From contig PFUC01000004.1 of NCBI GenBank assembly GCA_002789895.1, positions 1 to 27,832 on the forward strand: 27,832 nt of DNA, given 5' to 3'. This DNA is from Candidatus Collierbacteria bacterium CG_4_9_14_3_um_filter_43_16 (GTDB taxonomy: Bacteria > Patescibacteriota > Microgenomatia > UBA1400 > MFAQ01). This document shows positions 3,777 through 27,627 of the stretch, in pieces. The translations under genes were made by a program, and so were the position numbers. The notes beneath the pieces were generated by a model. It ran no database searches. It saw only the letters and a program-made list of their open reading frames with translations, and was not told where the DNA came from. The stretch's first letter is position 1, and each line of letters begins with the position of its first letter.

Positions 3777-4772
3777 CTAGTCGATTTCGGGGATGGTGGT
3801 GTCTTTGTTTAGCCTGACGTGGCCGAGAATGACCCGGGCGCTAAGCACAGTGGGTAAAGCCAGGACAGCAAGAAGAGGACCACCCAATTGAAAACCGATC
3901 ATAATGGCGACGATGGTGATAATGGGATTCAATCCAGCAACCTGTTGCATGACCTTAGGAACGATAAGATTGTTTTCCAATTGCTGAACGATGATAGAAA
4001 CAACGAGGGCGGCCAGACCATGAGTCGGGGAAACTGATAAACCGACCAGAACTGCAGGGACGGTGGCTATTGTAGGTCCAATATTAGGAATTAGTTCCAG
4101 CATACCGGCAATAAGGGCCAAAGGAATCGCAAAAGGAATTCCAATAATGAGATAGCCGATATAACTCAGAAGGCCGACAAGCAACATAAGAAGCAGCTCT
4201 CCCCTAACCCAATAACCAATTTGGACTTCCAGCTTTTCGGCGATGATGTGATAACGGTGACCTTTTTCACCAAACCAGAACTTGAGATAGTTCTCCAAAT
4301 TATGCATATCCTGAATCATGTAATAGCTGACGACAATAACCGTAAAAGCGGTGATAAAAGCCGAGAAAGTGTCGAGAGCAAAAGTAAGAACCTTACCGGG
4401 AACAGTGGCAAATTGGGCATTAAAAGAACCGTCGGTAAACTTGATGGGACTAACTGTATCGATAATGGTAGGTAACTTGATGAGAAAGAGCTGAGTCTGG
4501 TCCAGTAACGGAGAAGCTAAAGAAACGACGGAAAAAATGATAGTCCCGAATACAGCCAATAGAATGACCATGGAAGAAAGAGCTCGATTAATCCTGTATT
4601 TTTCAAGATGGTCCACCAGAGGACAAACTGCCAAAGTGATGAGAACAGCAATAAACAAAAGAATAATGACGTTAGAAAGCTTCATGACGATAAATATGGC
4701 GGCTAGAGAAAATAGGACCCAGAAGATGCTTCCAGTGGAGAAATCAAAGATAATGTGTTTCTGTTTAATCAT
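3777..4772 (-). CDS. AI-2E family transporter (PerM/UPF0118)
   Basis: Motifs 'GYWVRGELLL', 'ELIPNIGP' and 'QQLENNLIVPKVM....GLNP'. Confidence 0.92.
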   Translation of the reverse strand: MIKQKHIIFDFSTGSIFWVLFSLAAIFIVMKLSNVIILLFIAVLITLAVCPLVDHLEKYRINRALSSMVILLAVFGTIIFSVVSLASPLLDQTQLFLIKLPTIIDTVSPIKFTDGSFNAQFATVPGKVLTFALDTFSAFITAFTVIVVSYYMIQDMHNLENYLKFWFGEKGHRYHIIAEKLEVQIGYWVRGELLLMLLVGLLSYIGYLIIGIPFAIPLALIAGMLELIPNIGPTIATVPAVLVGLSVSPTHGLAALVVSIIVQQLENNLIVPKVMQQVAGLNPIITIVAIMIGFQLGGPLLAVLALPTVLSARVILGHVRLNKDTTIPEID

Positions 4773-5833
4773 TTTGTATATATTTCTGCCAGTTTTTGAC
4801 TTAATGATTTATCTACTTCACTTTTATCATACCAAAATATACTGGGTTGTTTCTTAAACCAGACCATTTGCCGACGGGCATAATCCACTTCGGATGCCGT
4901 CCACAGGTCTACCAGTGTTTCTTGAGAGATTTCATGGTGCAAGAATTGAAGAATCTGTTTGACGCCCAGACTCGTGTAGATTGGCAAGTGGAGGTCGGGG
5001 TATTTTTTAATTATATTTTTTACTTCTTCCACGGCTCCATTTTCTAATCTATCAATAACTCTATGATTGATCTGTGATTTCTGAATTACTTTATCGACTT
5101 TAAGGCCAACCCAAAGAAAGTTTGGTGGAGTGAGATTGCCGCGGTTCGAAGTACCGAAACTCGCAATGACGTTGGAGGAAGAAAAAGCGGTACTCATTGG
5201 ATGGATTCCCGCCTCCGCGGGAATGACGGAAGGCGAGGATGACAAGGGGAGGGTTTTTTGTTGTGAAGAGAAGATTTCGATGGCACGGATGAGACGTCTT
5301 GGATTATGGAGATCGGAGTTGTTTAGGGAAGCGAATTTGTGGGGATTTAATTTTGATAGACGGGATTGTAAAGACTGAAGATCTAGTTTCTCCAGATCCA
5401 AACGGAGAGATGGATTGGATGGAACGTGGACGTTGAGAAGATCTGAGGTAATGGCTTGCAAATACAAGCCGGTGCCTCCGACGATGATGAGAGGAATACT
5501 TTGAATAAATGATTTGTTAATCATTTTTTGAGAATAATTGACATAATCAGATAAGTTGAAGGGTTGGTTCGGCTCCACTAGATCCAGCCCAAAGTACCTG
5601 ATGCCTTGGGGAAGGTCACGAGGAATGTCCTTCCCCGTAACAATGTCCAGACCCTTGTATATCTGGCGGGAGTCGGCGGAGAGGATGTTGACGGATCGAG
5701 GTGGAGTGAGATTGCCACAGCACTTCGTGCTTCGCAATGACGAAGCGATGGAGAGAGCGAGGGAGGTTTTGCCGGAGGAAGTGGGGCCGCAGATGATGAG
5801 GATGGTTTGGTTTGTTTTTGTTATAGCTTTCAT
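4769..5833 (-). CDS. miaA: tRNA dimethylallyltransferase with in-frame REP-derived insertions
   Basis: GPTSSGKT P-loop, DSRQIYKGLDIVTGK, VGGTGLY, RRLIRAIE and YARRQ..WF. Confidence 0.95.
   Translation of the reverse strand: MKAITKTNQTILIICGPTSSGKTSLALSIASSLRSTKCCGNLTPPRSVNILSADSRQIYKGLDIVTGKDIPRDLPQGIRYFGLDLVEPNQPFNLSDYVNYSQKMINKSFIQSIPLIIVGGTGLYLQAITSDLLNVHVPSNPSLRLDLEKLDLQSLQSRLSKLNPHKFASLNNSDLHNPRRLIRAIEIFSSQQKTLPLSSSPSVIPAEAGIHPMSTAFSSSNVIASFGTSNRGNLTPPNFLWVGLKVDKVIQKSQINHRVIDRLENGAVEEVKNIIKKYPDLHLPIYTSLGVKQILQFLHHEISQETLVDLWTASEVDYARRQMVWFKKQPSIFWYDKSEVDKSLSQKLAEIYTK
5132..5171 (-). repeat. CGTC-type REP (subfamily A) inside miaA
   Basis: Minus strand CGTCATTGCGAG...GGCAATCTC. Encodes 'VIASFGTSNRGNL'. 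Confidence 0.85.
5202..5228 (-). repeat. CGTC-type REP (subfamily B) inside miaA
   Basis: Minus strand CGTCATTCCCGCGGAGGCGGGAATCCA. Encodes 'VIPAEAGIH'. Confidence 0.9.
5708..5742 (-). repeat. CGTC-type REP (subfamily A) inside miaA
   Basis: Minus strand CGTCATTGCGAAGCACGAAGTGCTGTGGCAATCTC. Encodes 'SSLRSTKCCGNL'. Confidence 0.85.
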
Positions 5834-5843
5834 GTTTCCCGGA

Positions 5844-5869
5844 TGGATCCCCGCATTCGCGAGGATGAC
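5844..5869 (-). repeat. CGTC-type REP (subfamily B variant) between miaB and miaA
   Basis: Minus strand GTCATCCTCGCGAATGCGGGGATCCA in the 45-nt intergenic gap. Confidence 0.8.
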
Positions 5870-5878
5870 AAATATAAC

Positions 5879-7024
5879 TTACGGGACGATGGGACGAGAC
5901 CTGAGATTATCTTTGTTGGTAATTTGATCCAATATTTCCCAACGTTCTTTCTTAATACTGGCCGGAATGTCGTCCGGGAATAGTTTAGCGGAGACTGTGC
6001 CTGGACGAGGCGAGTATCTGGCGACAAAGGCAACCTTGAAGCCAACTTCTTTGACTAGATTCAGTGTGTCCCGAAAATCATCCTCAGTTTCCCCCGGAAA
6101 ACCAACGATAATATCCGTACCAAAAACTACGTCAGGAATTTTAACTTTTATCTGATTAATTAAATTGAGGAAGGATTCTCTGGTGTATCCTCTATTCATC
6201 AGTTTTAAGATCCGATTGCTGCCGGACTGAACTGGTAAATGAATGAAACGATCGATTTTGGGATTTTTAGCTATCTCATCAACCAACTCGTCCCAGAAGT
6301 CCCAGGGGTTACTAGTAAAAAAACTGATCTTTTGGATGCCGTTAATTTTGCTGATTTCTCTAAGCAAAGTGACAAAAGGTGGGGTGTCTTGTGGCTTGAA
6401 GTATTGAGACTGATTGGAAGGAAAAATGTCTGAGTTGAAGGTGTCTTTATCCATGAACATCTTCCGGAGGGCCACACCGACTTTTTCTAAGCCCCAAGAG
6501 TTCACATTTTGACCCAACAGAGTGATTTCGGTATAGCCTTCTCCGGCCAACCCTGCAACCTCCCGAACGATATCGTCAATTGGGCGAGAACGTTCCCGAC
6601 CTCTGGAAAATGGCACAATACAAAAGGTGCAAAAAGAATTACAACCTGAGGAAATGGAAATAAAGGCCTTGTCCTTTTCTTTTCTGATAGCTTTTTGATT
6701 GAAACCGACTTCACCAATAGGAAGAATTTCGTCGATCTGGGGCAGAAGTACTCTTATTTCTTTTTCATTGAAATGGAGCATGCAGCCGGTGAGAATTATC
6801 TTGGGTCTTTGTTTCCGCGCAAAAAACTTGTCGACATTGAGCAAAAAACCGGTGACACGGTCCTCGGCAGACTGGCGGACGGAACAAGTGTTGATGACGA
6901 TTTCATCGGCTACTTTCCAAGTATCGGCCTCGGCATATCCGCGGGAAAGATAATCACCAAGTATGCGCTCGGAGTCTGACTTGTTCGCTTGGCAACCAAA
7001 AGTGTTGATAAAGACCGACGGCAT
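5879..7024 (-). CDS. miaB: tRNA methylthiotransferase MiaB-like, lacking the C-terminal TRAM domain
   Basis: UPF0004 domain (FGCQANKSDSE, TCSVR, GCM), radical SAM CNSFCTFC, HLPVQSGS and TDIIVGFPGET. Adjacent to miaA. Confidence 0.85.
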   Translation of the reverse strand: MPSVFINTFGCQANKSDSERILGDYLSRGYAEADTWKVADEIVINTCSVRQSAEDRVTGFLLNVDKFFARKQRPKIILTGCMLHFNEKEIRVLLPQIDEILPIGEVGFNQKAIRKEKDKAFISISSGCNSFCTFCIVPFSRGRERSRPIDDIVREVAGLAGEGYTEITLLGQNVNSWGLEKVGVALRKMFMDKDTFNSDIFPSNQSQYFKPQDTPPFVTLLREISKINGIQKISFFTSNPWDFWDELVDEIAKNPKIDRFIHLPVQSGSNRILKLMNRGYTRESFLNLINQIKVKIPDVVFGTDIIVGFPGETEDDFRDTLNLVKEVGFKVAFVARYSPRPGTVSAKLFPDDIPASIKKERWEILDQITNKDNLRSRPIVP

Positions 7025-27590: not shown

Positions 27591-27627
27591 GGATTGCCAC
27601 AGCTGGGTACCGAGATTCGCAATGACG
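27591..27627 (-). repeat. CGTC-type REP (subfamily A)
   Basis: Minus strand CGTCATTGCGAATC...GTGGCAATCC. Confidence 0.8.

Follow-up and report, generated by a model that had tools for sequence, protein, structure and literature searches.

In-frame CGTC-tagged hairpin repeats in the MiaA loops of a Collierbacteria genome and their likely origin

How does a gene for a tRNA-modifying enzyme come to harbour several palindromic repeats in its reading frame, and what becomes of the enzyme? The question is raised by the miaA gene of the window, that is, the whole stretch of 27,832 nucleotides analysed (contig PFUC01000004.1). The host of this DNA is an ultra-small groundwater bacterium (Collierbacteria). 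In the reading that we consider highly probable, the extra segments of miaA belong to two families of selfish CGTC hairpin repeats, which would have settled in frame in tolerant loops and would be translated, with MiaA still working. Its direct basis is the identity of the repeats, the empty and otherwise filled sites of the relatives, the recurrence at two loops, the intact gene and the location of the loops in a structural model. From there, we infer the translation of the inserts and their neutrality for the enzyme, whereas a nuclease-driven spread of the repeats would follow by analogy with a known system.

CGTC-tagged repeats in miaA and in the rest of the genome

The features of the locus, all of them on the minus strand, are as follows.

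4769..5833, minus: miaA (tRNA dimethylallyltransferase), an intact ORF of 354 aa (Pfam IPPT, 2.4e-46)
5742->5700, minus: element B1 (family B, CGTC-tagged), CGTCATTGCGAAGCACGAAGTGCTGTGGCAATCTCACTCCACC, in loop 1, past the P-loop helix, translation SSLRSTKCCGNLTPP; made of the CGTC tag, an outer stem ATTGC/GCAAT, an inner hairpin AGCAC-GAA-GTGCT and the tail CTCACTCCACC
5243->5233, minus: half copy of an A' element, GTCATCCTCGC, in frame as part of LSSSP and abutting element A on its 5' side
5228->5201, minus: element A (CGTC-tagged), CGTCATTCCCGCGGAGGCGGGAATCCAT, which reads VIPAEAGIH in frame; made of an 8-bp stem (ATTCCCGC/GCGGGAAT), a 4-nt loop GGAG and the tail CCA(T)
5171->5124, minus: element B2 (family B, CGTC-tagged), CGTCATTGCGAGTTTCGGTACTTCGAACCGCGGCAATCTCACTCCACC, in loop 2, translation VIASFGTSNRGNLTPP
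5841..5870, minus: intergenic A' element, tGTCATCCTCGCGAATGCGGGGATCCATCC, 8-14 nt upstream of the miaA ATG
5879..7024, minus: gene of a miaB-like radical-SAM methylthiotransferase of 381 aa (Pfam UPF0004 and Radical_SAM), without a TRAM domain

The three CGTC-tagged palindromes that the first-pass annotation had described in the miaA frame were found at their places, together with the half copy, unnoticed until now, and one protein of 354 aa bears three and a half repeat copies. The fourth repeat claimed between miaB and miaA is also present, at 5847-5869, and occupies most of a spacer of 45 nt. The head of the half element is identical in kind to that of the 10 full A' copies of the genome, whereas B1 has an identical second copy in the same genome (C81:609-640) and corresponds to a 13-aa gap in the alignment to the solved MiaA 2qgn. 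Both loops are enlarged when compared with 80 homologs: loop 1 has 21 aa against a median of 9 aa, and loop 2, which runs from RAIEI to FLWVGL, has indeed the 51 aa previously reported, against a median of 20 aa. At the RNA level, single copies of the miaA repeats reach a moderate stability only (z = -2.0, -2.9 and -0.1; the fold of element A, with z = -2.9, has -17.6 kcal/mol), and neither a known RNA family in Rfam (E <= 1) nor a match of MiaA to the NCBIfam RPE-type domain models (E <= 0.1) was found. As for the adjoining miaB-like protein, it scores above the cut-off of TIGR00089 (355 bits) and below that of the MiaB model TIGR01574 (333 bits, cut-off 355), with a match that stops near position 369 of the 437 of the profile.

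The repeat identity of these segments is far beyond chance. A k-mer census of the 888-kb genome gives CGTCATTGCGA as its most frequent 11-mer, with 68 copies, and the GTCATTGCGA head occurs 83 times where about 1.7 occurrences are expected. Full elements amount to 66 of family B and 14 of type A or A', dispersed over 42 contigs and with a majority of intergenic copies. Family B is built of a 5-bp outer stem, an internal loop, a variable inner hairpin (4-8 bp) and a tail of 11 nt; its inner stems vary in sequence yet stay paired (TTTCGG/CCGAA, TCTCGG/CCGAG, CCCGCC/GGCGGG, GTCGCC/GGCGAC and AGCAC/GTGCT). A C lies directly 3' of the palindrome in 62 of 63 B copies, and directly 5' of the GTCAT of the GTCATTGCGA head in 68 of its 83 genomic copies, with all three miaA copies starting by CGTC. 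On the other hand, element A agrees with the Neisseria NTS consensus CGTCATTCCCGCGMAVGCGGGAATCYRG at 26 of 28 positions (2 mismatches; 0 matches expected by chance), a type of pattern that gave 0 matches in 100 shuffles of the window and that, within 3 mismatches, has 4 copies in the genome. Repeats of these families were detected in 21 of 41 related genomes and also in other orders, the A type even in Neisseria.

The genome-wide count of repeats within coding sequences indicates that in-frame copies are common, with about a fifth of all repeat copies lying in frame within Pfam-supported genes. Apart from miaA, at least 17 in-frame copies map to 13 such genes, which encode SecA, ComM (2), TatD, LeuRS, a NUDIX protein, YchF, a polyprenyl synthase, a P-type ATPase, LepA (2), Ddl, an FkbM methyltransferase, GatB and a RimK-like protein. 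A repeat copy has on average 3.96 open frames against 3.28 for random windows, an excess too modest for a stop-free design of the repeats, and selection after insertion accounts for most of the pattern. The idea of the mia locus as a hotspot holds in part: its four copies within 1.1 kb form the densest cluster of the genome (P ~0.01 under random placement) and its two loops appear to have been hit time and again within the genus, but nothing sets it apart in kind, as the same pattern is seen in the LepA linker and in at least a dozen other genes.

Filled and empty loops in a probably working enzyme

In the preferred reading, repeat copies would have landed inside miaA with the reading frame kept, at two surface loops able to tolerate extra residues, one past the P-loop helix and the other linking the RAIEI helix to the core strand that follows. 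The copies would survive there because the frame is kept, no stop codon occurs in that frame and the loops tolerate the extra residues. The inserts would thus be translated as about 12 and about 31 additional residues, mostly disordered, of a working MiaA. The comparison that bears on these steps was made with 12 aligned MiaA proteins of the same genus and a wider set of 80 homologs. Among the same-genus proteins, both loops are found empty, shared or otherwise filled, which defines the empty sites: two genomes with 0 repeat copies (G003 and G012) have bare MiaA loops, the opposite of what would be seen if repeat-free relatives carried the same peptides, and the miaA of G002 has B2 but lacks a 57-nt segment containing A. 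B2 is an orthologous copy in the present genome (G000) and G002, with 46 of 48 nt identical. Loop 2 has seven different fills on the MiaA tree, distinguished by family, frame or position, from which at least seven separate insertion events can be deduced, whereas the site-1 fills with a common CTCACTCCA tail may reflect one old insertion and later losses instead of repeated hits. Moreover, loop 1 is enlarged in 18 and loop 2 in 16 of the 80 homologs, mostly with repeat-type peptides, and G002, G003 and G012 have an empty LepA linker. No filled/empty polymorphism was seen in the Logan contigs of the metagenome runs, and the mobility of the repeats would be a deduction from the comparison between species.

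The gene itself looks functional and under purifying selection, with a dN/dS of 0.12-0.24. The protein scores 162.9 bits against the TIGR00174 equivalog (cut-off 148.65) and keeps the P-loop, DSRQ and GGTGLY motifs, as well as 43 of the 43 invariant columns of the 80 homologs, although the latter by construction of the invariant list. All 12 orthologs of the genus are open despite many separate inserts, every one of them in frame and stop-free. An AF2 model of MiaA (pLDDT 86.6; core above 90) has as its top Foldseek folds the MiaA structures 2zm5, 3foz and 3exa (2zm5_A with a TM of 0.79 by target). When mapped on this model, the inserts are predicted as unstructured loops on a good core: residues 36-47, which correspond to B1, form a coil with a pLDDT of about 80, and residues 194-237 have no secondary structure, with a pLDDT below 50 at 205-229. 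Taken together with the empty and filled sites, the loop location and the selected gene favour the repeat-driven loop growth in a tRNA-modifying enzyme that had been suggested earlier.

An assembly artefact is ruled out, given that independent runs carry the same filled allele. This allele occurs in independent metagenomes of 2014 and 2017, the runs X16 (2014), X23 and X7 differ from it at 0-1 positions with no indel variants, and a 99%-identical protein of 354 aa is encoded on 11 contigs. Joints skipping the repeats were not seen in the metagenome contigs, except for repeat-to-repeat cross-mapping. The sole RNA run provided one contig of 164 nt (5252-5415), which crosses no repeat and could derive from DNA carry-over.

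Competing explanations for the miaA segments

The most serious competitor, to which a small but appreciable chance is given, requires no transposition into miaA in this lineage: alleles already bearing repeats would have exchanged sequence by homologous recombination or gene conversion, the repeats acting as homology patches or as cut sites on incoming DNA. The identity between G000 and G002 flips at the loop-2 repeat cluster, from 0.92 on its 3' side to about 0.70 on its 5' side, and the divergent block of miaA is bounded by this cluster and the intergenic repeat. Moreover, dS amounts to 0.99 for the N part against 0.45 for the C part, G002 is no nearer to G000 in the N part than other species are, and the two genomes are sisters in the C-part tree (91/82) and unresolved in the N-part tree. 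Recombination tracts shaped by NTS repeats have also been proposed in the work on Ssn nucleases (PMC11893778). However, identity in 300-nt windows elsewhere in the same 8 kb goes from 0.65 to 0.92 (sd 0.058), which leaves the switch within normal variation, and both trees are short and poorly supported. A breakpoint at the repeats is thus suggestive, yet inside the background variation, and recombination without prior insertions cannot give differing families, frames and positions at one loop.

Improbable, in turn, seems a co-option of the inserts, either for new contacts with tRNA or a partner, or as hairpins of the mRNA or DNA with a role in miaA regulation or in flagging the gene for Ssn-dependent variation. 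All of the 16 third-codon positions of B2 are identical in G000 and G002, against 63% elsewhere in miaA, but a conservation specific to B2 is ruled out, as the high identity covers the entire 3' third of the gene. Enlarged loops are common in the clade and the intergenic repeat lies close to the start codon (8-14 nt); the fills, in any case, vary in family, frame and sequence among species, several of which have none, the insert-bearing loop is predicted to be disordered, and the same repeats occur in many unrelated proteins. Still harder to sustain is an inactive or decaying miaA, or a removal of the inserts before the mature protein, for all that CPR genomes are reduced and the adjoining miaB-like gene lacks the TRAM domain. 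Inserts of 43-48 nt fall well below the size of introns or inteins, nothing in Rfam matched, and the low dN/dS, the intact catalytic motifs and the 12 open orthologs of 12 rule out a pseudogene, the outcome that would have undermined the original proposal. Finally, the segments could be old parts of MiaA with a coincidental likeness to the repeats, or the repeats could derive from miaA, as the CTCACTCCA tail common to several species at site 1 might hint. This is scarcely credible in view of 80 dispersed and mostly intergenic copies, families present in other orders (the A type in Neisseria), sites that are bare in repeat-free relatives, and median loops of 9 and 20 aa in the 80 homologs.

Strand orientation, a candidate partner gene and related systems

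For the preferred reading of selfish repeats inserted in frame, the orientation of the copies offers a hint about their spread. Of 80 copies, 68 have their head on the locally C-rich strand (p ~1e-10), and most of the exceptions are inverted partners of dimers; in the closed genome G002, one strand is the C-rich one in each of 20 sampled windows, and it bears 28 of the 29 copies. A one-strand composition bias of Collierbacteria chromosomes was published in 2020. The nearly constant position of the CGTC head on the C-rich strand would be due to a strand-specific insertion or retention of the repeats on a chromosome apparently replicated one way, although a selective loss of cleavable copies from the exposed strand, instead of directed insertion, could also produce the bias. 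The enzyme acting on the elements, as hairpins in single-stranded DNA, would be a small Ssn-type GIY-YIG nuclease.

A single-domain GIY-YIG gene of 97 aa was found in the genome (C69:30226-30519; Pfam GIY-YIG, 64 bits), flanked upstream by B copies at 53 and 106 nt and downstream, at 51 nt, by an inverted B (order B, B, gene, inverted B). The same architecture is shared by this copy and its six closest homologs (L093-L098), across four families, whereas more distant homologs have GTCAT-headed hairpins of their own at their flanks. The best PDB match of the protein is UPF0213 BH0048 (E = 0.006), and 4735 homologs at 60-74% identity occur across phyla. By analogy with the Ssn/SRM system, this gene is likely the partner of the repeats. 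On the other hand, some of the related genomes have the repeats or the GIY-YIG gene, one without the other, and no GIY-YIG homolog was detected in G002, with 29 repeat copies, at E <= 1e-8. As a mobilising enzyme, RAYT is ruled out: the four Y1_Tnp (RAYT) genes of the genome are each flanked by their own non-CGTC hairpins, such as CCTTCAAGGCCAGGCCTTGAAGG. The label of REP given to the miaA repeats stands in the sense of CGTC-tagged REPs and can be refined to Ssn-related SRM/NTS motifs, with the GIY-YIG gene, and not a RAYT, as the putative partner.

The MiaA repeats add one example to a phenomenon known from Rickettsia and other bacteria, and the precedents invoked for palindromic insertions in coding regions, CGTC REPs and Rickettsia RPEs, are documented (PMC3733652). 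CGTC-tagged REPs with intragenic copies, which include Rickettsia RPE-4 and RPE-6, were reported by Di Nocera, De Gregorio and Rocco (2013, BMC Genomics 14:522, PMC3733652), and their Table 1 gives a single stem of 8-9 bp, a loop of 4-5 nt and a 3-bp tail. The repeats studied here share with them the terminal CGTC tag, a short GC-rich hairpin, a short 3' tail, tens to hundreds of copies, head-to-head dimers, in-frame genic copies encoding 10-30 aa and the lack of a RAYT of their own. Element A fits that description, whereas family B, instead of one such stem, combines a conserved 5-bp outer clamp with an inner hairpin that varies freely and with a tail of 11 nt, and the host, unlike in the published cases, is a CPR bacterium. 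Like the repeats here, RPEs are selfish palindromic DNAs in frame in many housekeeping genes, at surface regions and compatible with function; the RPE-1 family (Ogata et al. 2000, as cited in PMC3733652) has an unrelated sequence, and the RPE host is an intracellular alphaproteobacterium. As in the GTAG REP/RAYT systems (IS200/IS605-like Y1), hairpins would move as single-stranded DNA and the partner gene is accompanied by inverted repeats, but the miaA repeats are tagged CGTC and the RAYT genes of this genome have other hairpins at their flanks. As to size, RPE-1 elements are longer than the present repeats, about 100-150 bp.

The Ssn GIY-YIG single-strand nucleases, their NTS/SRM repeats and the cleavage of ssDNA, in which the enzyme binds the single-stranded hairpin and cuts immediately upstream of it, were described in 2025 (Nat Commun, PMC11893778). 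The upstream CGTCA and the C 3' of the palindrome are conserved in both systems, element A agrees with NTS at 26 of 28 positions, and both have a single-domain GIY-YIG gene of about 97 aa with inverted repeats on both sides; different nuclease lineages go with different hairpins. In contrast, the GIY-YIG flanks found here are of B type and not of NTS type, and the presumed kinship with Ssn nucleases is one of architecture. Intragenic or translated copies, Patescibacteria and replication-relative orientation are not treated in that paper (PMC11893778). The case of MiaA brings together three published observations, intragenic CGTC REPs (2013), the strand bias of Collierbacteria (2020) and Ssn nucleases (2025), whose combination gives a testable idea on the spread of the repeats. 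Tentatively, and with doubts outweighing confidence, the probable unidirectional replication and nearly uniform repeat orientation of Collierbacteria could be linked to an Ssn-type GIY-YIG nuclease tied to a replication-coupled, single-strand spread or purging of the repeats, which would remodel MiaA and LepA loops and may mark recombination breakpoints.

The locus would add the candidate phyla radiation to the range of translated CGTC/SRM repeats and provides a clean and well-controlled example of selfish DNA turned into protein sequence, in which 12 congeneric genomes let the events be counted and ordered. In the CPR, conserved proteins often contain insertions that lack an explanation, and these can lead annotation, alignment and structure prediction astray. 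For MiaA itself, the consequence of carrying these repeats is likely small.

Repeat elements within the miaA reading frame

The miaA gene of the Collierbacteria genome G000 (888 kb in 94 contigs, 43% G+C) stays open for 354 codons on the minus strand of the window (4769-5833), and its product matches both the Pfam IPPT family (2.4e-46) and the NCBIfam equivalog model of MiaA (162.9 bits, exceeding the cut-off of 148.65). Judged by the names that homologs bear, the organism belongs to Candidatus Collierbacteria (Microgenomates, CPR). The first-pass annotation had described REP elements lying in frame inside this gene, and re-reading of the coding strand confirmed their coordinates and peptides, the 51-aa length of the loop between RAIEI and FLWVGL, and the additional copy between the miaB-like gene and miaA. 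The repeat-encoded segments of the MiaA product are predicted from the open frame.

Repeat elements in and beside miaA (window coordinates)
B1, 5742->5700, coding (minus) strand: CGTCATTGCGA-AGCAC-GAA-GTGCT-GTGGCAATC-TCACTCCACC; peptide SSLRSTKCCGNLTPP
Half element, 5243->5233, coding (minus) strand: GTCATCCTCGC
A, 5228->5201, coding (minus) strand: CGTCATTCCCGCGGAGGCGGGAATCCAT; peptide VIPAEAGIH
B2, 5171->5124, coding (minus) strand: CGTCATTGCGA-GTTTCGG-TACT-TCGAAC-CGCGGCAATC-TCACTCCACC; peptide VIASFGTSNRGNLTPP
Intergenic copy, 5869->5847, filling the spacer between miaA and the miaB-like gene upstream: GTCATCCTCGCGAATGCGGGGATCC

These segments are members of true repeat families. A k-mer census identified CGTCATTGCGA as the commonest 11-mer of G000, while GTCATTGCGA occurs 83 times versus ~1.7 expected, and full elements amount to 66 in family B and 14 in family A/A', both tagged by CGTC. 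Family B shows a conserved head (C ahead of GTCAT in 68 of 83 copies), an outer clamp ATTGC/GCAAT, a C after the palindrome in 62/63 copies and, in about half of the copies, a tail TCACTCCAYC. Its inner hairpin varies in sequence but keeps its pairing (TTTCGG/CCGAA, TCTCGG/CCGAG, CCCGCC/GGCGGG, GTCGCC/GGCGAC, AGCAC/GTGCT). Of the 28 positions of the NTS motif published for Neisseria (CGTCATTCCCGCGMAVGCGGGAATCYRG), 26 are matched by element A, and this type of motif gave no matches in 100 shuffles of the window; an Rfam search of the miaA region matched no family. Another family-B copy (GTCATTGCGAATCTCGGTACCCAGCTGTGGCAATC, minus strand) is found close to the window end, at 27592-27626.

The four copies within 1.1 kb at miaA form the densest cluster of G000 (P ~0.01), one of six with at least three copies in that length. 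The first-pass annotation had also suggested counting REP copies inside coding sequences genome-wide, and a scan for elements inside long open frames, which were then searched against Pfam, yielded at least 17 further in-frame copies in 13 supported genes, about one fifth of all copies. They lie within or between the domains of SecA, ComM (two copies), TatD, LeuRS (editing domain), a NUDIX protein, YchF, a polyprenyl synthase, a P-type ATPase, LepA (two copies), Ddl, an FkbM methyltransferase, GatB and a RimK-like ligase. Repeat copies keep a mean of 3.96 of six frames open versus 3.28 in random windows, and their survival in genes would therefore result mainly from selection after insertion.

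The miaB-like methylthiotransferase (5879-7024) has only 381 aa. Its matches to MiaB models end near position 370 of 437, so that the TRAM domain at the C terminus is missing, and it scores below the MiaB equivalog cut-off and above that of the MiaB/RimO subfamily.

Integrity of the gene and loop filling in relatives

In Logan contigs of groundwater and aquifer runs made independently in 2014 and 2017, the filled allele recurs with 0-1 differences and no indel variants of it were seen, which rules out an assembly artefact; these contigs often break at the repeats, with depth spikes, as expected for repeats present community-wide. A decaying pseudogene, also contemplated in the first-pass annotation, is opposed by a dN/dS of 0.12-0.24 (versus three congeners), by orthologs that are all open in the genus and by intact P-loop, DSRQ, GGTGLY and NPRRLIRAIE motifs, which fall within invariant columns. 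Together with an AlphaFold model (80 homologs; mean pLDDT 86.6, pTM 0.81) whose closest structures are MiaA 3exa, 2zm5 and 3foz, these data make miaA look functional. Mapped on this model, as had been proposed, the inserts are located in coil (residues 36-47, pLDDT ~80) and in a region without secondary structure (194-237, pLDDT <50 at 205-229), and would be loops of MiaA; with respect to solved MiaA structures, they correspond to a 13-aa gap and ~28 extra residues. Transcription is weakly suggested by one metatranscriptome, with only a 164-nt contig within miaA.

MiaA sequences from 40 related genomes were aligned. Among the 12 same-genus genomes, variation occurs at two loops, one after the P-loop helix (loop 1) and the linker from RAIEI to FLWVGL (loop 2), the remainder being gap-free. 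Loop 1 is bare in G003, G004, G005 and G012, and carries B-type fills with a common tail in G000, G002, G006, G008, G009 and G010. Loop 2 is bare in G003, G004 and G012. B2 occupies the identical codon of loop 2 in G000 and G002, the former having 57 nt extra that contain the half copy and A; G011 and G005 have in common another B copy (VIA/VIT frame), and further fills are B in G010 (SLR frame) and G009 (RHC frame), B plus an inverted B-like copy in G006, an A copy in G008 (VIPAKAGIH) and a third CGTC type in G001 (VIPGLTRNPE). Placed on the MiaA tree, the fills of loop 2 would require at least seven events. As for repeat-free relatives carrying the same peptides, the opposite was found: G003 and G012, the two members of the genus with zero copies of CGTCATTGCGA, have both loops bare. 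The bare and filled loops support the interpretation of the first-pass annotation, that is, repeat-driven loop growth in MiaA. Over 80 homologs the loop medians are 9 and 20 aa, versus 21 and 51 aa in G000, and most enlarged loops contain repeat-type peptides, loop 1 reaching 84 aa in one homolog. In G002 (locus L002) and G010 (L008), a second small hairpin (TACCC..GGGTA; GGTACCCGAAGGGGTA / GGATACCCCTTGCGGGTA, 21 and 24 nt) is nested in the loop-1 B element between GGC and AAT, keeping the reading frame. G000 has 17 occurrences of ACCCCTTCGGGTA, a related k-mer.

In LepA (G000 contig C57:7414-9282, L042/L075), the linker that joins the G domain to domain II holds two B copies in G000, whereas the orthologs (L076-L087) show other repeat fills in G001, G005, G007 and G010 and a bare linker in G002, G003 and G012. 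This linker is another recurrently colonised loop and follows the MiaA pattern.

Comparison of miaA between G000 and G002 (window 4769-5873) reveals a mosaic, with a 3′ third, from B2 on, 87-97% identical and 5′ two-thirds only ~70% identical (dS of 0.45 versus 0.99), the borders coinciding with repeats. Only the tree of the C-terminal part supports G000 and G002 as sisters. Other parts of these 8 kb show identity swings of similar size, and a recombination breakpoint tied to the repeats is therefore only possible.

A candidate partner nuclease

In the case of RAYT-like Y1 transposases, G000 encodes four (C54, C64, C65 and C52; L051-L054), each bordered by its own, non-CGTC hairpins (e.g. CCTTCAAGGCCAGGCCTTGAAGG), a difference that led to their rejection as mobilisers of the CGTC repeats. 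Previously described CGTC REPs are likewise devoid of RAYT (PMC3733652). In the RAYT-like proteins, NLQGL(A/S)L(Q/K) stretches resemble in-frame readings of the hairpins that flank their genes.

A search for GIY-YIG genes gave three matches, one of them a single-domain protein of 97 aa (P0121, C69:30226-30519). Its locus (C69:30120-30680, L090/L092) has two direct B copies upstream and one inverted B copy downstream, a layout common to the six closest homologs, which with the G000 copy represent four families of the order. On the upstream side, the distance to the repeat head is 49-65 nt in all of these seven loci except L095, where it is 118 nt; on the downstream side, the inverted head follows after 36-69 nt. 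More distant homologs are flanked by hairpins of their own, also headed by GTCAT, one type being that of the G001 MiaA. This arrangement is the same as that of the Ssn site-specific single-strand nucleases with NTS/SRM repeats published in 2025 (PMC11893778), and by analogy the CGTC repeats probably have an Ssn-type partner in P0121, with which, and not with a RAYT, they would probably spread. Homologs of P0121 number 4735 at E <= 1e-5, and identity still amounts to 60-74% in distant phyla (Ignavibacteriales, Syntrophomonas and the cyanobacterium Phormidium). Such a distribution agrees with a mobile gene and suggests that horizontal transfer has been frequent.

Novel features and strand orientation of the repeats

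CGTC/GTAG REPs lying in frame inside genes were already described, as were Rickettsia palindromic elements (PMC3733652); the phenomenon is of a known kind, and its likely partner belongs to the nucleases reported in 2025. New features are the lineage of the host, a density of three and a half copies within a single small enzyme, recurrence documented at two loops, the composite structure of family B and a strand lock. In G000, 68/80 copies have their CGTC head on the locally C-rich strand (p ~1e-10), most exceptions being inverted partners of dimers, while the link with gene direction is weaker (56:23). In the closed genome of G002 (1,089,434 bp), 28 of 29 heads map to one strand, the plus, whose GC skew is negative in each of the 20 windows sampled round the chromosome; G006, G024 and G019 likewise show evident per-contig purity of orientation. 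The one-strand composition bias of G002 was published in 2020 and interpreted as one-directional replication, with repeat orientation absent from that paper (PMC7143001); the Ssn paper discusses the repeats' own orientation and does not contain the words 'lagging' or 'leading strand' (PMC11893778). The link between skew and repeat orientation appears to be unpublished, and the strand lock would fit either strand-specific insertion or strand-specific loss.
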